From a virus, in IMG/VR virus record IMGVR_UViG_3300045988_119157, positions 1-31,970 of that record: 31,970 bases of DNA, one strand, 5' to 3'. The number at the start of each line of letters is the position of its first letter. Position 1 is the first letter of the stretch. Below the pieces are notes generated by a model. It saw only the letters and a program-made list of their open reading frames with translations. It was not told the DNA's origin and did not search any database. Shown in pieces: positions 3,812 through 31,970 of this stretch. Made by a program: the position numbers and the translations under genes.

Positions 3812-4996
3812 ATGAGCGTCACGGTCAAAAGGGGCAGGGACGGCGTTTTCGAATGCCGCCTGTATCTCGGTCGCGGCGTTGACGGCAAGGCGATCCGCCC
3901 CTATAAGCGATTCCCCAACGCCGCAACGGAGTCCGAGGCTCTGGAACTCGCGGAGACGTGGGCGGCAAACCTCACGGCAAACGGAGAGGTTAAGAGCGCC
4001 CGCCTGGTTGACCTTCTTGCCGATTACATTCAGCTCAGGGAGCGGAACGGCGCAAGTCCCAACAGCATCAAGAGCTATCGACTGTTCACGCACTACGTTG
4101 CGAGGTTTCTGAGGACTGCCAACGCTCGTGATCTCAGCGTCATGGACTTCAACCGGTTCGAGCAGGCGTTGCTCATGCCCAAATCTGACGGAGGCCAGGG
4201 TCTTTGCAGGAACAGCGTCATCAATGTCCACAACTTCCTGAGAGGCGCTTACAACCACTTTGTCGATGCCGGAATATGCGACGCCAACCCGATTGTCTAC
4301 GTGTCGAAGCCGTCACCCGAGCGGCATGAGGCATGCGCCCTGACCGAATGGGACTTCGAGGACTTCAACGCGCGGCTCGAATCGGCGATGGGCGTCGAGG
4401 GAACCAGCATGAGCGAATACCGCCGTGCGGTCTATGCGTTCGCCGCATGGCTCGCGCTCGTGACCGGGATGCGCGTCGGTGAGGTGTGCGCGGAGCAGAG
4501 GGCCGATGTGAAGCGCTATCAGATGTTCCTACACGTCGGCGGCAATGTCATCGAGAGCGCCGGGGCGAAGCCGTATCGGCGTAACGTCACGAAAGGCCGC
4601 AAATGCCGAAACATCGCCGTGACCGCAGAGGATCTGGGCGTTATCGATTCGTTCGTGAGGCTGCAGAACGCGGTTCTCGGGCGTCTTGATGTCGATTCCC
4701 CTCTGGTGACGCTCGATGGCTCCTATATGCGCCCAACGACGATTTCACGCGCTTTCAGCCGTATCCGCGATTCGTGCGGCCTTCCGAAGGAGATCACGTT
4801 TCACAGCCTGCGGCACACGCATGCCTCCTGGCTCATCGCGAACGGGTGCGACCTTAAGACGCTCTCAGAGCGGATGGGCCACGCTGACGAGGCAACGACG
4901 CTCCGGATCTACGGGCACCTGATGCCCGGTCGCGATGCCGTGGCGGCGCAGCTCTTCAGCGAGGCTAAGAAGCGCGCAACTGGCATCTACGCATAA
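3812..4996 (+). CDS. int: Tyrosine recombinase / phage integrase with an N-terminal arm-binding (AP2-like) domain
   Basis: The C-terminal catalytic signature is HSLRHTHASWLIANGCDLKTLSERMGHADEATTLRIYGHL (R..H..R..Y). The N-terminus has an arm-type DNA-binding domain. Confidence 0.95.
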   Translation: MSVTVKRGRDGVFECRLYLGRGVDGKAIRPYKRFPNAATESEALELAETWAANLTANGEVKSARLVDLLADYIQLRERNGASPNSIKSYRLFTHYVARFLRTANARDLSVMDFNRFEQALLMPKSDGGQGLCRNSVINVHNFLRGAYNHFVDAGICDANPIVYVSKPSPERHEACALTEWDFEDFNARLESAMGVEGTSMSEYRRAVYAFAAWLALVTGMRVGEVCAEQRADVKRYQMFLHVGGNVIESAGAKPYRRNVTKGRKCRNIAVTAEDLGVIDSFVRLQNAVLGRLDVDSPLVTLDGSYMRPTTISRAFSRIRDSCGLPKEITFHSLRHTHASWLIANGCDLKTLSERMGHADEATTLRIYGHLMPGRDAVAAQLFSEAKKRATGIYA

Positions 4997-8154: not shown

Positions 8155-8242
8155 GGAGAGTTGGCAGAGCGGCTTAATGTATCCGGTTGCTAACCGGACG
8201 ATGCGCAGGCATCCGCAGGTTCGAATCCTGTGCTCTCCGCCA
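8155..8242 (+). tRNA. tRNA-Ser (anticodon GCT), type II tRNA with a long variable arm, phage-encoded
   Basis: A manual cloverleaf fits. Acceptor GGAGAGT pairs with GCTCTCC. D-loop GAGCGGCTTAA. Anticodon stem TCCGG/CCGGA with loop TTGCTAA. A 16-nt variable arm has a 5-bp stem. T-arm GCAGG-TTCGAAT-CCTGT. The discriminator is G and CCA is encoded. The sequence closely parallels E. coli tRNA-Ser. Confidence 0.85.
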
Positions 8243-22493: not shown

Positions 22494-22895
22494 ATGGCAA
22501 GGATCACTCATTTTATTGCTCACGACCCCATTACAAACAGCGAGGGGGTAGTTACGGAATACGACCAAGAGCTGTTATCTAGGGCGTCAGACTCGGGAAT
22601 CGTTTTTATCTCAGTTGACGAACAGGGAAATAGGCAGATTGTACCCGTCGATGAGGTCAAGGAGCCGGATCAGGTCGGCGGAGATTACCAGATTGTCCAA
22701 CCGCTATATGTCGATCAGCGAATGCAAGCGGTCGTTGATGTGTTCGACGCCCTGTCGGCGAGCGTTCCAGCAGTTACCGCGAGCGCCGACGTGCAGTCAG
22801 CATCCGGCGAGTCGCGTTCTTCCGTGAGTTTCAATGAAGCGCTGGAAAATCTTCGTTCACTCGCGTATGGAACCGGAGAGAAAGGCGGCGAGTGA
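22494..22895 (+). CDS. Hypothetical tail-associated protein (133 aa)
   Basis: The RBS is AGGAG. The gene lies within the tail-fibre gene block. Confidence 0.5.
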   Translation: MARITHFIAHDPITNSEGVVTEYDQELLSRASDSGIVFISVDEQGNRQIVPVDEVKEPDQVGGDYQIVQPLYVDQRMQAVVDVFDALSASVPAVTASADVQSASGESRSSVSFNEALENLRSLAYGTGEKGGE

Positions 22896-23896
22896 TGGGC
22901 AACACGCGGACTCTTGAACTCGACATCTCGAAAGAGGGAACGGGAGATTGCATAAAGGTCGGTCAGGGTGACGCTGGTGGAACAACAATCAATGCGCTCA
23001 TCTACGATAACGGCGCTGAGTTCGCACTTTCGGGCGCTACAGTATGGCTCGTCGTGATGCTCCCGAACAGGCGCAACTACTATCGCGGCCAGTGCTCGGT
23101 GAGCGGCAATACCGCCATGATCACGGTTGACGAAGCCAAGCTTTGCGGCGTTCCCGGATACACTGACGAGGCATATTTCACGATCACCACGGGCGGCAAG
23201 ACCTATTCGACGGAGCGCTTCGCAATCGAAATCCTGCGCAGCGCTCTTGACGGTCAGAAGCCAGCGCAAAGCTGGGATGACGCCGTGCAAGATCTCATCA
23301 ATCGCGGCGAGAGCGCGGTTTCCTCTGCCAACTCTGCGGCAAGTTCGGCGAATAAGGCCGCAAGCTCGGCAAACGCGGCTGCGGGAACGGCAAGTGCGGC
23401 TGCTGGAAGCGCGAATGCAGCTGCCAGCAAGGCGAGCACGGCGGCGTCAAACGCCGATGCCGCGACAGGAAAGGCGAACACGGCAGCAAGCTCCGCGAAC
23501 TCAGCAGCTTCCGCAGCGAGCGCCGCAAAGCAAAATGCGGACAAGGCAACTGACGCGGCAAGCAAAGCGGCTGGTATCGCCAATTCTGCGGCGTCAAGCG
23601 CAAACGCATCCGCATCGCGCGCCAACGGTGCCGCTGATGACGCGACGGCGGCTGCCACCAACGCGCTCAACATCGCGAACAGCATTGCGTCAATTAAGCC
23701 TCCCAGCAACACGGAGGTCGAGGAACTGAGGAAGGCCAACGAAATCCTCGCCTCTGCGGTGTCGGAGCTTCAGGACAAGTACGTCCTGATCGGTGAGACG
23801 GCATACGTCCCGCCGACCCGCGTGACCTCTTACAGCGGTGAGACGCTTGCGCTAGCGCAGTCGGGCATTTCCGACGAAACCGCGACCCTAAATTAA
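22892..23896 (+). CDS. BppU-like upper baseplate / fibre protein with an Ala-Ser-Asn heptad repeat stalk
   Basis: The N-terminus (TLELDISKEGTGD...QGD...LSGATVWL) resembles the BppU N-domain. The central roughly 125 aa are (SANxAAS)n repeats. Confidence 0.55.
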   Translation: MMGNTRTLELDISKEGTGDCIKVGQGDAGGTTINALIYDNGAEFALSGATVWLVVMLPNRRNYYRGQCSVSGNTAMITVDEAKLCGVPGYTDEAYFTITTGGKTYSTERFAIEILRSALDGQKPAQSWDDAVQDLINRGESAVSSANSAASSANKAASSANAAAGTASAAAGSANAAASKASTAASNADAATGKANTAASSANSAASAASAAKQNADKATDAASKAAGIANSAASSANASASRANGAADDATAAATNALNIANSIASIKPPSNTEVEELRKANEILASAVSELQDKYVLIGETAYVPPTRVTSYSGETLALAQSGISDETATLN

Positions 23897-23907
23897 GGAG
23901 AACCAAC

Positions 23908-24810
23908 ATGGCAGATGTCTCAGTCCTCACATTCAACGGCGCGCCGCGCAACGTCAAGGACGTCACCGCGCGGAACACGGCAAACGCCGCGACCACCGCT
24001 CAGGAATACGACCGACAGCAATTGACCGGAACCTATAAGGGGCGCTCCATCGAGTCAGTCTTCGCCGCCGAGATCGGCAGCGCAAACGTCTGGACGTGGC
24101 TCCAAAAGCGGGTGAAGGCAGCCAACTTCACGGGGCTTCGCATCGGCGATTACATCGACGTGCAGCTGAAGGCCGGTGTCAACGTCCCCTCCCAGACCGT
24201 CAGGTACCGCATCGCGGCCATCGACCCGTATTACCAGTGCGGGGACACACCGAAGGGCCACCATCTAGCGATGGTCCCGTCCGCCCCGGTGTCCGTCACC
24301 GGTGACAAGGCCGTGAACGGATCTTATATCAAGTGGCGCGACACGAACGACAACAACGGCATCGCAGATGAGAAGCACCCGTATCTGTGCTCGAAGCTGC
24401 ATGAGTGGGAGATCGGCGATTTCCTGCCGTCCCTCCCGACCGAGTGTCAAGCAGCCATCATGCCGCAACGCGTCTTGCTCAATGAGCGCTACGCGTCGAG
24501 CGGGAAGCTCACCGATGACAGCGGTTGGTCTTGGGTCGATCTGGGGAAGGTATGGTCTCTTTCCGAAATCGAGGTCTACGGGTTCCAAGCATGGAGCAAG
24601 ACTGGTTACAGCATCGGATTCGATTGCCATTTCCCGATTTTCGAAGACACGGCATCTCGAATCTTGGGAACTCGCGTCGCGTGGTGGCTCCGCTCCGTCA
24701 TGGGCGGTTCGTCCTCCAACGTGTGCAATGTCGGCAGCAACGGCATTGCCGGCGACAACGCCGCGACGCATGACTGGGTTCGCCCGTTCCCGTGCTTCCT
24801 CGTAGGCTGA
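23908..24810 (+). CDS. DGR target protein (putative receptor-binding protein) with a C-terminal variable region
   Basis: The last roughly 45 codons match the downstream TR except at TR adenines. Its position before avd fits the Mtd-like arrangement. Confidence 0.75.
   Translation: MADVSVLTFNGAPRNVKDVTARNTANAATTAQEYDRQQLTGTYKGRSIESVFAAEIGSANVWTWLQKRVKAANFTGLRIGDYIDVQLKAGVNVPSQTVRYRIAAIDPYYQCGDTPKGHHLAMVPSAPVSVTGDKAVNGSYIKWRDTNDNNGIADEKHPYLCSKLHEWEIGDFLPSLPTECQAAIMPQRVLLNERYASSGKLTDDSGWSWVDLGKVWSLSEIEVYGFQAWSKTGYSIGFDCHFPIFEDTASRILGTRVAWWLRSVMGGSSSNVCNVGSNGIAGDNAATHDWVRPFPCFLVG
24672..24799 (+). repeat. DGR variable region (VR)
   Basis: The 128-bp VR aligns to TR 25336-25463 with 11 mismatches at TR adenines. 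The A-to-G changes fall at 24679, 24733, 24734, 24737, 24751, 24752 and 24754. The A-to-C changes fall at 24680, 24769 and 24795. The A-to-T change falls at 24746. Only about 2 non-A mismatches occur, near the ends. Confidence 0.85.
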
Positions 24811-24837
24811 TTTATCAGCCGTACGCAACACTGAACC

Positions 24838-24860
24838 GGCGCATGCCTTGCGCATGCGCC
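24838..24860 (+). other. GC-rich hairpin downstream of the VR (DGR homing hairpin candidate)
   Basis: GGCGCATGC-cttgc-GCATGCGCC forms a 9-bp perfect stem. It lies 28 nt after the target stop and is absent after the TR. Confidence 0.5.
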
Positions 24861-24895
24861 ATCAGGTCGAGACGGCTTAGCAAGGAGATGGTCGT

Positions 24896-25306
24896 TTGAG
24901 TGGTGTATATGCCCGAAACAGGCATCTGAGTGCCCATAAGTATTTCACGCTTGCATTGGAGATAAGGGCAGAGATCACCAAGAAGGTGACAACGAAGCAG
25001 CTGCCGAAGTCGTACAGGTTCGTCTTCGCCGTCCCTATGGCCGAGACAGCCAGAAGCTTGGTCATGAATCTCGTAAAGGCGGATGCGTTCTACCCGAACA
25101 CCGCGCGAAACGTCGATGAGCGCAAGAGATTTATGACGCTCGCTATCGCCGACTGCAACCAACTGCTCCAAGACCTGCAATGCCTGAAGTCTCTCAACTC
25201 GAACATAAGCCTGTCGTGGTTCGAGACGCTTATTCAGGACGTCGATGATGACATAAAGCTCATCAAGGGCGCTCGGTCTGGCGTGAAACTGATAGGAAAG
25301 GGGTAA
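24896..25306 (+). CDS. avd: DGR accessory variability determinant (Avd-like four-helix-bundle protein)
   Basis: The product is a 136-aa basic helical protein. The TTG start lies 9 nt after AAGGAG. It sits between the target and TR as in canonical DGRs. The pattern resembles Avd / IVS-protein family. Confidence 0.6.
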   Translation: MSGVYARNRHLSAHKYFTLALEIRAEITKKVTTKQLPKSYRFVFAVPMAETARSLVMNLVKADAFYPNTARNVDERKRFMTLAIADCNQLLQDLQCLKSLNSNISLSWFETLIQDVDDDIKLIKGARSGVKLIGKG

Positions 25307-25335
25307 AATGAATAAGTGTTGCCCCTTGGAAATCT

Positions 25336-25463
25336 TCGCGTCAATTGGTGGCTCCGCTCCGTCATGGGCGGTTCGTCCTCCAACGTGTGCAATGTCAACA
25401 ACAACGGCAATGCCAACAACAACGCCGCGACGAATGACTGGGTTCGCCCGTTCCCGTGATTCC
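25336..25463 (+). repeat. DGR template repeat (TR)
   Basis: The TR is nearly identical to the VR. It is AAC/AAT-codon-rich (AAC AAC AAC GGC AAT GCC AAC AAC AAC) where the VR differs. Confidence 0.85.
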
Positions 25464-25650
25464 CAAGACCTGCCAGACCGCGCAGACCGCAGCTCTGAGC
25501 GCCGTGCATTTGAGGAAGGAAGGGGCAACCATCGGGCGCGCGCCCGTAAATTTGCACCCCGAGACGGTTGCCGTTCGCTTCTTGCATGGCGCGGGATTTG
25601 GCACCTGCCCGCGTTTCATGGTCATCCGTCAAGCGGCTTTCGGGTGCCGT

Positions 25651-26784
25651 ATGAAGCCGTTCGGGGTGCCTCCAATGAACTCCGATGAGCGCCGAGCGGC
25701 GCGCCGAGCACGGCGCGATAACAAAAGGGCCGCAAATCGCTCGGAGCGGATAGAGGGGTGCACGCTCGAATCCATCGCAGATCTCGACAACCTATACCAG
25801 TCGGCGGTCGACGCCTCACGTGGCGTTAGTTGGAAATCGAGCGTCCAGAGGTACATGCTGAGGGTCATGCCGAACATCATGCGCGCACGAAAAGACCTCC
25901 TATCCGGTAAGGACTTCAAGCGCGGATTCATCGAGTTCGACATATTCGAGCGCGGAAAGCTCAGGCACACATGCTCTGTCCATTTCTCAGAGCGAGTCAT
26001 ACAGAAATCTATCAGCAGGCACGCGTTAGCACCGGCGATATGGCCTACGCTGACCGAAGGGTGCGCCGCGAACATAAAGGGGCGCGGCACTGAATATGCC
26101 GTCAGGCGATTAAAGCGCCAACTCGTAAACCATCACAAGAGGCACGGTGAGCGCGGGTACATCCTTCAGGTCGACTTCGCGAACTACTTCGGCAACATCG
26201 ACCACGGAGCTTGCAAGCGCCTTATCGACCGAGCACTTGACGACGATCGGGTTAAATCGGTCGTATTCGACCAGATTGACGCGCACGGGACTCGCGGCCT
26301 TGGTCTCGGCAGCGAGCCAAACCAAGTGCTCGCCGTAGCACTGCCGTCACCAATCGACCACCTCATGCTGTCCACGCCCGGAATCCTCGCAAGTGGCCGC
26401 TATATGGATGACAGCTATTGCATCGCGCTTGAGAAAAACGTTCTGCATGACGCGCTCGAAAGAATCGAATCACTATGCGACGAATTCGGGATTGTCATCA
26501 ACCGGAAGAAGACGAGGATCGTTAAATTGTCTCGCGGATTCGTCTTCCTCAAGAAGAGGTTTTATTTCGGCGACGGCGGCAAGGTAGTCGTGAGGCCATG
26601 CCGAAGCTCCATCACGCGTCAACGCAGGAAGTTGAAGAAGCAGGCGGCGCTCGTCGGTCGCGGCATGATGACCAAGGAACAGGTAAACCAATCCTATCAA
26701 TCGTGGCGCGGCGGCATGAAGCGGCTCGATGCGCACGACACAATACTGCGCATGGTCGCGCTATATAAGGAGCTTTTCGGATGA
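25651..26784 (+). CDS. DGR reverse transcriptase
   Basis: RT motifs are present (LQVDFANYFGNIDH and the YMDD box GRYMDDSYCIA). The ORF is open from 25456 (GTG overlapping the TR end). Candidate ATG starts are at 25618, 25651 and 25675. Confidence 0.85.
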   Translation: MKPFGVPPMNSDERRAARRARRDNKRAANRSERIEGCTLESIADLDNLYQSAVDASRGVSWKSSVQRYMLRVMPNIMRARKDLLSGKDFKRGFIEFDIFERGKLRHTCSVHFSERVIQKSISRHALAPAIWPTLTEGCAANIKGRGTEYAVRRLKRQLVNHHKRHGERGYILQVDFANYFGNIDHGACKRLIDRALDDDRVKSVVFDQIDAHGTRGLGLGSEPNQVLAVALPSPIDHLMLSTPGILASGRYMDDSYCIALEKNVLHDALERIESLCDEFGIVINRKKTRIVKLSRGFVFLKKRFYFGDGGKVVVRPCRSSITRQRRKLKKQAALVGRGMMTKEQVNQSYQSWRGGMKRLDAHDTILRMVALYKELFG

Positions 26785-26863
26785 CGGAGAGCGCATAGAC
26801 AGGCACCAAGCTCCCAGCGATGAACCCGCCGGGGGCTTTTGTTTTCTAGGGAAAGGAGAAAGT

Positions 26864-27310
26864 ATGGCACTGACCGCACAAGAGGAGGCTAAGGTTCGCG
26901 CGATCATCGCGATTTATGATGGCATGGCCCCATCACTGTCAGATGACGTTGCGAGCAATTGCCCGGCGCTGTTTCCGGAATGGAACGGCAATGGCCATGC
27001 ATACGCACGCGGGGAACGAGTTACGAAAGATTCCGTGCTATATGTCTGCCTCCAAAATCATGTGTCACAGGGCGATTGGGCACCGAAGTCATCCAATAGC
27101 CTATGGGCAAAGGTTCTTGAAGCCGGTAACGCAGACACCCCCAGCTCAGAGGTGCCAGCATGGCAGCAGCCGGAATCGACCAACCCGTATCCGCTCGGCG
27201 CTCGCGTAAAGCACAAGGACAAGGTCTGGGAGTCTATTGTCGCCAACAATGTTTGGGAGCCGGGAGCAGTCGGCACCGAGACCGTTTGGCGCGAGGTCGC
27301 GGAGGGATAA
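26864..27310 (+). CDS. Carbohydrate-binding protein with two CBM5/12-like repeats
   Basis: Two repeats follow the pattern W..(n)..Y..G..V......Y.CLQ.H.S...W.P.....LW. They are HAYARGERV...YVCLQNHVSQGDWAPKSSNSLWAKV and NPYPLGARVKHKDKVWESIVANNVWEPGAVGTETVWREV. The RBS is AAAGGAG. Confidence 0.55.
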   Translation: MALTAQEEAKVRAIIAIYDGMAPSLSDDVASNCPALFPEWNGNGHAYARGERVTKDSVLYVCLQNHVSQGDWAPKSSNSLWAKVLEAGNADTPSSEVPAWQQPESTNPYPLGARVKHKDKVWESIVANNVWEPGAVGTETVWREVAEG

Positions 27311-31916: not shown

Positions 31917-31970
31917 ATCTTTCCACATGGGGAAAGATACGACTTTCCTTGACATGGTCAAAGGAAAGTC
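31917..31970. repeat. Terminal direct repeat, right copy (identical to 1-54)
   Basis: The sequence shows an exact 54-bp identity with the window start. Confidence 0.8.

Follow-up and report, generated by a model that had tools for sequence, protein, structure and literature searches.

We are very confident that the region 23908-26784 of the phage genome analysed here is a complete diversity-generating retroelement (DGR) of the BPP-1 type, in which the target gene, avd, TR and RT follow one another where the tail module ends. The genome (IMG/VR record IMGVR_UViG_3300045988_119157; the whole stretch of 31,970 nucleotides is referred to as the window) is circular, 31.9 kb in size, and that of a temperate siphovirus of gut Collinsella; its relatives reside as prophages in Collinsella and other Coriobacteriia. 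The order target-avd-TR-RT had been proposed in a preliminary description of this DNA, and all four components were independently confirmed; the ORF positions given there were reproduced, the start codon of the RT excepted. The genes and repeats are as follows:

22892-23896, plus strand, BppU_N-like baseplate or tail-fibre protein (Pfam BppU_N, 4.9e-5; PHROG tail fibre families)
23908-24810, plus strand, DGR target gene, 300 aa (DUF6273 at aa 143-294, nt 24334-24789)
24672-24799, plus strand, VR, the 3' end of the target gene (rewritten part 24679-24773)
24896-25306, plus strand, avd, 136 aa (TTG start, AAGGAG ribosome-binding site)
25336-25463, plus strand, TR (mutable part 25343-25437; IMH* 25438-25463 with marker A25459)
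25675-26784, plus strand, DGR RT, 369 aa (Pfam RVT_1, PHROG 1423, bRT 8ub7)

An ungapped comparison showed that the limits of VR and TR given in the preliminary description, 128 nt at an offset of 664, are exact to the base. The two repeats differ at 12 of the 128 positions, and 11 of these mismatches fall on TR adenines instead of being spread evenly over the four bases (P=3.4e-8, hypergeometric; 26 of the 128 TR nucleotides are A). The sites listed earlier as A to G (25343, 25397, 25398, 25401, 25415, 25416 and 25418), A to C (25344, 25433 and 25459) and A to T (25410) are all right, and every variable codon is AAC or AAT in the TR, as had been claimed; the tally of 11 mismatches at adenines stands, but a single non-A mismatch (25345, T to G) was found in place of about two. 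The mutable part of the TR contains 25 adenines, 10 of which differ from the VR in the present copy, and 11 AAY codons. Together with three further A-containing codons these are open to randomisation, and mutagenesis of the adenines cannot generate a stop codon but allows approximately 4e14 protein variants. A scan of both strands of the window revealed no second VR or other TR-like copy. The adenine-specific pattern is repeated in about 65 related loci with TR/VR pairs of 119-130 nt.

The direction of the transfer can be read from the sister prophage L001, the VR of which differs from the present one at 16 of 128 positions (12.5%), the TR at only one (0.8%); in avd, RT and the spacers the divergence does not exceed 0.5%. 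The sole TR change in L001 (25424, G to A) is also found in its VR, at 24760. This mirrored change, together with the near-constant TR and the variable VR, indicates that information flows from TR to VR. In 15 members of the target's 90% protein cluster, which has 280 members besides the present one, 4-11 different residues occur per AAY codon, and the hypervariable residues coincide exactly with the TR AAY codons; only TR codons containing A are hypervariable, and the remaining variable columns in these 15 members show two residues in nearly all cases and at most three. From such comparison between genomes we infer that the DGR is active.

The 3' end of the VR and the sequence following it contain three conserved features:

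24774-24799, plus strand, IMH-like 3' end of the VR, an A-free, GC-rich 21-nt stretch (CTGGGTTCGCCCGTTCCCGTG) followed by C24795 and TTCC
24805-24820, plus strand, hairpin 1 (GGCTGA-TTTA-TCAGCC), 5 nt after the VR and including the stop codon of the target gene
24838-24860, plus strand, hairpin 2, with a 9-bp GC-rich stem and a conserved CTTGC loop, read as GCAAG on the other strand, at a distance of 38 nt from the VR

At 24795/25459 the VR has C and the TR has A in 54 of 56 related loci, and in 36 of these the codon concerned is GGC/GGA, where any base would be synonymous. Since the difference is fixed even at a four-fold-degenerate codon, it is, as judged from these sequences, a marker that separates IMH from IMH* and not a product of mutagenesis. 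The base difference at 25459 is real, but its earlier listing among the adenine substitutions does not hold.

The 6-bp stem of hairpin 1 shows compensatory changes at three of its six pairs with 100% of cells paired, and that of hairpin 2 at seven of nine pairs with 99.3% of cells paired. Hairpin 2 is a candidate for the DGR target-recognition hairpin or cruciform. It is kept also in loci that have a separate terminator-like hairpin and a T-run just downstream, and is therefore not simply the terminator; after the present target gene a terminator scan found none. The published DGR hairpin has a stem of 7-10 bp and a 4-nt GRNA loop and lies 4-34 bp from the VR, whereas neither TTTA (hairpin 1) nor CTTGC (hairpin 2) fits the GRNA consensus on the sense strand and hairpin 2, at 38 bp, is slightly beyond the published distance. 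In single-sequence folding the post-VR region (z −1.8) was not significant, nor was the spacer discussed next (z −1.7); for both, the support is from comparative analysis only.

Around the TR the following RNA-level elements were found:

25304-25309, plus strand, TAnAAT hexamer that overlaps the stop codon of avd, a candidate −10 box from which the TR RNA would be transcribed
25318-25327, plus strand, 5' strand of a long-range duplex that brackets the TR (pairs with 25520-25529)
25468-25689, plus strand, Rfam RF03077 RT-2 RNA, representing the spacer RNA (Sp) that separates TR and RT of the DGR
25510-25523, plus strand, purine strand UUGAGGAAGGAAGG (Sp 47-60), near-invariant
25520-25529, plus strand, 3' strand of the long-range duplex, AAGGGGCAAC (pairs with 25318-25327)

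Weinberg et al. 2017 (PMC5737381) gave no function for RT-2; they tied only RT-10 to a DGR and "speculated" that the other RT motifs were retron- or DGR-linked. The present spacer matches RF03077 over its full length (model positions 1-222 of 222) with a high score (101.9 bits, gathering score 40, E 8.7e-23); it differs from the published RNA in being placed right between a verified TR and the corresponding RT and in forming two pairings outside the Rfam model, one with the 3' end of the TR and one with sequence upstream of it. Over the TR-flanking structure as a whole, compensatory change was seen at 27 of 70 pairs and the paired fraction of cells was 96.7%, which none of 500 shuffles matched. 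The bracketing duplex was recovered by RNAalifold without constraint (compensatory change at 6 of 11 pairs, 94.5% of cells paired), and the G-U wobbles within it point to pairing at the RNA level. The 8-nt core of the purine strand, AGGAAGGA, does not vary among 25 loci. Base pairs link Sp 47-49 and 51-54 to 25460-25466, which comprises the terminal UUCC of the TR and three further nucleotides; the four pairs within the TR are essentially constant and the three distal pairs covary. We regard the purine strand as a candidate primer strand, in which Sp A54 (25517) would stand opposite U25460. Putative analogues of the structures that characterise the RNA around a BPP-1-type TR (template:primer duplex, stop duplex, Avd-binding stem-loop) are present as covarying helices.

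Downstream, a helix of 25554-62 with 25661-69 probably takes in the Shine-Dalgarno-like GGGGUG of the RT and would couple RT translation to RNA folding. Apart from its third position, the TAnAAT hexamer is identical in 25 diverse loci; a sigma-70 promoter scan of 23700-27000 detected no site and no canonical −35/−10 pair, so that the box is a candidate by conservation only. Taken together, RT-2 probably serves a DGR clade of Actinomycetota as its scaffold RNA in cis, with a purine primer strand (candidate A54), a "stop" duplex bracketing the TR and the Shine-Dalgarno sequence of the RT sequestered.

The Avd-like 136-aa gene noticed earlier between VR and TR was confirmed to encode a basic four-helix-bundle protein adjoining the TR. 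Neither Avd (single sequence and profile) nor the target sequence gave anything meaningful against PDB chains; matches to designed repeat proteins and cytochrome oxidase in these searches were dismissed as chance.

The conserved start of the RT is ATG 25675 (MNSDERR), where ATG, GTG and TTG interchange among homologues, and not 25651 as first described. The YMDD box was correctly recognised; it lies at 26401-26412, within an RYMDD (26398-26412) that is invariant. Typically, motif 4 of DGR RTs is [I/L/V]GxxxSQ. The present RT has LGLGSEPNQ, in which L, G and Q are kept and Asn for Ser is invariant across the clade. The enzyme matches PHROG 1423 at 5.5e-60, its best PDB match is the Bordetella phage bRT (8ub7, E 2.6e-9, 39.8 bits; group II RT 19.4), and F66, R74, G182 and Q187 of bRT are conserved in it; the roles of bRT I181, G182 and Q187 have been described (bioRxiv 10.1101/2023.10.23.563531). 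One codon of the RT is private to the present contig:

25969-25971, plus strand, ACA for Thr99, which aligns to bRT I76 (Ile in the clade, ATA in the closest relatives)

The target protein, for which no recognisable family had been seen, belongs to Pfam DUF6273 (1.2e-12; 48.5 bits, above the curated cut-off of 23.5; aa 143-294), and the VR encodes aa 255-298, the C-terminal end of this domain. The C-type-lectin-like fold suggested earlier for the C-terminus was found in a structure model and agrees with the DUF6273 assignment; the model is of low confidence (pLDDT 44-68, residues ~190-270), with an IgA peptidase (9qa6) as top structural match. The order of the tail module is TMP-Dit-Tal-BppU_N-target, with lysis genes downstream. 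The BppU_N-like protein, whose gene lies immediately upstream, is the probable anchor of the target protein; natural BppU_N-DUF6273 fusions exist (P0066, P0116). Most likely, VR changes in the C-terminal loops of the target alter receptor binding and host range.

Could the repeat be an ordinary duplication and the RT that of a group II intron, a retron or an Abi/DRT defence system? The RT does have sub-threshold NCBIfam matches, to group II RT/maturase (52.6 bits, cut-off 300) and to Drt2-5, but retron RT reaches only 21 bits against a cut-off of 235, the Drt families stay far under their cut-offs, and the best solved relative is bRT. Rfam scans of the window revealed neither an intron nor a retron RNA, RT-2 being the only match in the region. 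With adenine-specific mismatches throughout the family and the TR-to-VR transfer directly visible in the comparison with L001, this explanation is effectively refuted. A genuine DGR whose present copy is a recently inactivated relic, with I99T in the RT and a frozen VR, is a different matter. Residue 99 is Ile in all 118 homologous proteins and in 79 loci, and Thr in the present contig only; since it aligns to a fingertip residue of bRT, I76, that contacts the template base (bioRxiv 10.1101/2023.10.23.563531), the substitution at this clade-invariant position could have impaired the element. The non-A mismatch at 25345 of the present VR, absent from L001, fits such a loss. We nevertheless consider it unlikely, because the TR, avd, the RNA elements and the rest of the RT are undamaged and hardly differ from those of relatives, a single substitution of conservative size need not abolish activity, Thr99 could be an assembly error, and a VR differing from its TR at 10 mutable adenines argues that the element was active recently.

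Still less likely is that the DGR is real and its target is another virion-surface adhesin or one expressed by the lysogen, for example a module binding mucus or host epithelium. DUF6273 is known also from Hoc-like or Ig-bearing "tentaclin" proteins, and the paper on the IgA peptidases to which the top structural match of the target model belongs mentions DUF6273 (PMC12402451). Against this stand the position of the target gene, directly after those of Dit, Tal and the BppU_N protein and ahead of the lysis genes, the natural fusions of the two domains, and the architecture, which parallels that of mtd in BPP-1.

For the DGR of a distal tail protein, the following mechanism is proposed. An RNA spanning the TR and its flanks would be transcribed, possibly from the TAnAAT box at 25304-25309, and would fold such that the 10-11 bp duplex 25318-27/25520-29 brackets the TR, while the UUCC at the TR 3' end (25460-63) pairs with the RT-2 purine strand (Sp 47-54). 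The RT and the basic four-helix-bundle Avd would then copy the TR into cDNA with misincorporation opposite adenines, and the cDNA would replace the VR between 24679 and 24773, with the GC-rich IMH at 24774-24799, its marker C24795 included, and probably also the two post-VR hairpins directing the homing. The 11 AAY and three other A-containing codons would thus be randomised, giving up to ~4e14 variants without a stop codon, and the changes would land in C-terminal loops of the DUF6273/C-type-lectin-like domain of the 300-aa distal tail protein. In this scheme priming in cis from Sp A54, the part played by the hairpins, the promoter and receptor binding are candidate functions suggested by analogy.

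The element resembles that of BPP-1 (mtd-avd-TR-brt) in gene order, in a distal tail gene that carries the VR at its 3' end and encodes a fold of the C-type-lectin type, in the AAY codons and the basic four-helix Avd, and in an RT whose closest solved relative is bRT with F66, R74, G182 and Q187 conserved. In both, the IMH is GC-rich and marked by differences between TR and VR, and a hairpin, in the present element a candidate for target recognition, lies downstream of the VR. It also shares a purine primer-like strand at nearly the same position (Sp 47-54; in BPP-1 Sp 47-56 with A56; bioRxiv 10.1101/2023.10.23.563531) and a duplex joining sequences up- and downstream of the TR (the "cPRT Stop" of BPP-1). 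It differs in that the host is a Gram-positive actinomycetote, the target is a DUF6273 protein without sequence similarity to Mtd, there are two conserved hairpins rather than one, with loops that are not GRNA, motif 4 has LGSEPNQ instead of IGSLTSQ, the spacer RNA is RT-2 of 211 nt instead of RT-10 of 140, and the duplex at the TR end involves the last four TR nucleotides only.

DGRs targeting DUF6273 have been reported for the Faecalibacterium prophages Lelie, CP11, Roos and Pioen (PMC11792537), for target2 of the phages nd4/nd12 (PMC10743442) and for Toutatisvirus (bioRxiv 10.1101/2024.10.15.618418). These gut phages likewise are temperate and have a small target with the VR at the C-terminus of the domain and a predicted C-lectin-like fold; their hosts are Bacillota and not Coriobacteriia, and the present element differs from theirs in its single adjacent target, no second VR being found in the window. 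The clade to which it belongs comprises 323 Coriobacteriia genome stretches, type strains among them. In a blastn search of 50,697 phage records the sole match of the cassette was 74 nt long, which leaves it without a close annotated phage in that collection. The literature searched for Collinsella DGRs contained no account of the present element (the catalogue of 372 DGRs, Wu 2018, was outside its scope); one apparent match for Collinsella and DGR concerned the CspRecT recombinase instead.

Besides DGRs, no natural system of targeted protein hypermutation is known from prokaryotes, and tools for directed evolution are under development from them. The present element embodies no new principle but is one of a known and well-populated kind, since DUF6273-targeting DGRs of gut phages have already been published and relatives occur in hundreds of Coriobacteriia genomes. 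It does connect RT-2, an orphan RNA of Rfam, with a defined DGR role, and the covariation indicates that the RNA architecture of BPP-1, with primer strand and TR-bracketing duplex, recurs in a distant phylum in unrelated sequence. If the reading of RT-2 as a scaffold is true, the element, with its two-hairpin target site, would provide a second, sequence-unrelated test case for the RNP mechanism of BPP-1. The hosts can be cultured (C. stercoris DSM 13279, RT 95% identical; C. aerofaciens ATCC 25986, RT 81% identical), and in cultured type strains with 81-95% identical cassettes tropism switching of Collinsella phages is testable.

The 3' end of the tail-protein gene (variable repeat, VR, 24672-24799) and the template repeat (TR, 25336-25463) form a 128-nt direct repeat with an offset of 664, exactly at the coordinates of the preliminary description. 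In a base-by-base table, VR and TR differ by 12 mismatches, of which 11 are at TR adenines; given 26 A in the 128 nt of TR, the hypergeometric probability of this bias is P = 3.4e-8. Each substitution claimed earlier was recovered, and the mismatch-bearing codons are, as had been stated, all AAC or AAT in TR in the target reading frame. Instead of about two non-adenine mismatches there is a single one within the repeat, at 25345 (TR T versus VR G). A scan of the whole window found no additional TR-like copies on either strand. TR/VR pairs of 119-130 nt are present in about 65 related loci, with mismatches nearly all at adenine.

The flow of information from TR to VR is directly seen in the comparison with L001, a near-identical sister prophage integrated within a 186-kb bacterial contig. 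The two VRs differ at 16/128 positions and the two TRs at 1/128, while avd, RT and spacers differ by ≤0.5%; the L001 VR carries the one TR change (25424 G to A) too, at the corresponding position. Among 15 members compared from the 90% cluster of the target (281 members in all), each of 11 AAY codons encodes 4-11 different residues. ATG265 and GAC289 are variable too, as expected from the adenines in both codons, and the remaining variable columns are nearly all biallelic, none with more than three residues. Adenine mutagenesis of the mutable stretch can give no stop codon, and about 4e14 protein variants are possible.

The A-to-C substitution at 25459 is real, but it is not the mutagenesis site it was taken for. 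In 54 of the 56 loci in which this position could be anchored, VR has C and TR has A, also where (36 of the marker loci) the codon is GGC/GGA and any base there is synonymous; moreover, copying TR A25459 into the window's VR would create a TGA stop. It is therefore a fixed marker of IMH and IMH* (the 3' ends of VR and TR) that lies beyond the transferred segment. The last mutable TR adenine is 25437; after it come 21 nt that are GC-rich and free of A, the analogue of the GC-rich IMH element of Bordetella phage BPP-1.

Two hairpins stand 3' of VR:

24805-24820: hairpin 1, enclosing the stop codon
24838-24860: hairpin 2, a 9-bp GC-rich stem with the loop CTTGC

Guo et al. reported that BPP-1 homing requires such a hairpin/cruciform, with GC-rich stems of 7-10 bp and GRNA loops 4-34 bp from VR; the present hairpins are alike in kind but differ in loop sequence. 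Both recur family-wide with differing stem sequences: together, 10 of 15 pairs have compensatory changes and 99.5% of cells are paired, a covariation score reached by 0/500 shuffles. Hairpin 2 is not simply the terminator, since it is kept where a separate terminator-like hairpin with a T-run stands just downstream.

Most clade members (L008-L016, L021, L029-L080) have this extra hairpin (CCCGCG..CGCGGG plus T-run) after hairpin 2 and before avd. It is absent from the window and its closest relatives, in which the distance from VR to TR is 664 nt versus about 700-760. In L024 (Olsenella sp. Marseille-P4559) the sense-strand loop of hairpin 2 is GCAA, as against CTTGC (antisense GCAAG) in the other loci; the loop appears to be inverted in this lineage alone.

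The reverse transcriptase (RT) matches Pfam RVT_1 and PHROG 1423 (5.5e-60), and its best solved relative is the enzyme of BPP-1 (bRT, 8ub7, E 2.6e-9), group II RT being far behind. RYMDD is invariant, and motif 4 is LGLGSEPNQ clade-wide. Also conserved are F66, R74, G182 and Q187 of bRT, residues that touch either the template or the incoming nucleotide (bioRxiv 10.1101/2023.10.23.563531). The start is 25675 rather than 25651 as proposed before, because the N-terminus MNSDERR is conserved and relatives alternate ATG, GTG and TTG at this codon; the same start rules out the 442-aa ORF of the gene callers. Residue 99 is Thr in the window (ACA, 25969-25971), ATA in the five closest relatives, and Ile in 118/118 listed homologous proteins and 79 loci. 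Its bRT counterpart in the alignment is I76, a residue of the fingertip that contacts the template base (bioRxiv 10.1101/2023.10.23.563531). Thr99 may indicate an impaired or altered enzyme, or else an assembly error; the identification of the DGR is unaffected.

Rfam RF03077, RT-2 RNA, matches 25468-25689 over its full length (101.9 bits versus a gathering score of 40). Weinberg et al. (PMC5737381) had described the motifs RT-1 to RT-19 in the vicinity of RT genes; RT-10 alone was tied to a DGR, that of BPP-1, and the others were speculated on. RNAalifold, applied to an alignment of 25 loci from 45 nt upstream of TR through the RT start, gave two pairings besides the internal RT-2 helices:

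25318-25327 with 25520-25529: TR-bracketing duplex, 10-11 bp
25460-25466 with the near-invariant purine strand UUGAGGAA (47-54 of Sp, the spacer RNA between TR and RT): helix of the TR 3' end plus 3 nt

In the whole TR-flanking structure 27/70 pairs have compensatory changes and 96.7% of cells are paired; 0/500 shuffles match this covariation, and slid controls collapse. By analogy, Sp A54 (25517) would be the primer opposite U25460, with A25459 as first template base. The hexamer TAnAAT (25304-25309) is invariant across 25 diverse loci. It overlaps the stop codon of avd, stands 7 nt upstream from the bracketing duplex and may be the -10 box of a dedicated TR-RNA transcript; a promoter scan called no canonical promoter there, and a canonical -35 was not found. 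A clade-invariant 9-bp RT-2 helix (25554-25562 with 25661-25669) pairs GGGGUG (GGGGTG), the only Shine-Dalgarno-like sequence upstream of 25675, which points to a coupling of RT translation with RNA folding.

The window encodes a temperate siphovirus. Its first and last 54 nt (1-54, 31917-31970) are identical; it is thus a circularly closed assembly, and the genome of about 31,916 bp is probably complete. Large terminase, portal, tape measure, Dit and Tal are encoded, as well as:

3812-4996: integrase
8155-8242: tRNA-Ser, anticodon GCT (both ARAGORN and Rfam)
22892-23896: BppU_N-like protein, adjoining the DGR cassette, which comes next

After the cassette follow a CBM5/12 protein, holin, a C39-like peptidase and a GH25-LysM endolysin. 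The central part of the BppU_N-like protein is a long low-complexity stretch, rich in Ala and Ser, with repeats such as ASSANAAAG; in the related proteins P0066 and P0116, BppU_N and the DUF6273 target are fused in one polypeptide. The small CBM5/12 carbohydrate-binding-module protein (26864-27310), between RT and holin, is in the same place in the sister prophage and could bind the cell wall in lysis or in adsorption. Collinsella and other Coriobacteriia have homologues of each of the three DGR proteins. In a scan with one genome per species, 323 genome stretches encode RT relatives, including C. stercoris DSM 13279 (95%), C. aerofaciens ATCC 25986 (81%) and C. intestinalis DSM 13280 (56%).

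The interpretation as a complete DGR is upheld, with corrections on 25459, the RT start, the number of non-adenine mismatches and the target, which was thought to have no recognisable family and contains DUF6273. The element belongs to a known, well-populated kind, architecture B1 (a class of Wu et al.) with a DUF6273 target; such targets have already been published (PMC11792537; PMC10743442; bioRxiv 10.1101/2024.10.15.618418). Two by-products are the most useful: RT-2 RNA is now assigned to a DGR, and there is covariation evidence for conservation of the BPP-1 RNP architecture in Actinomycetota.
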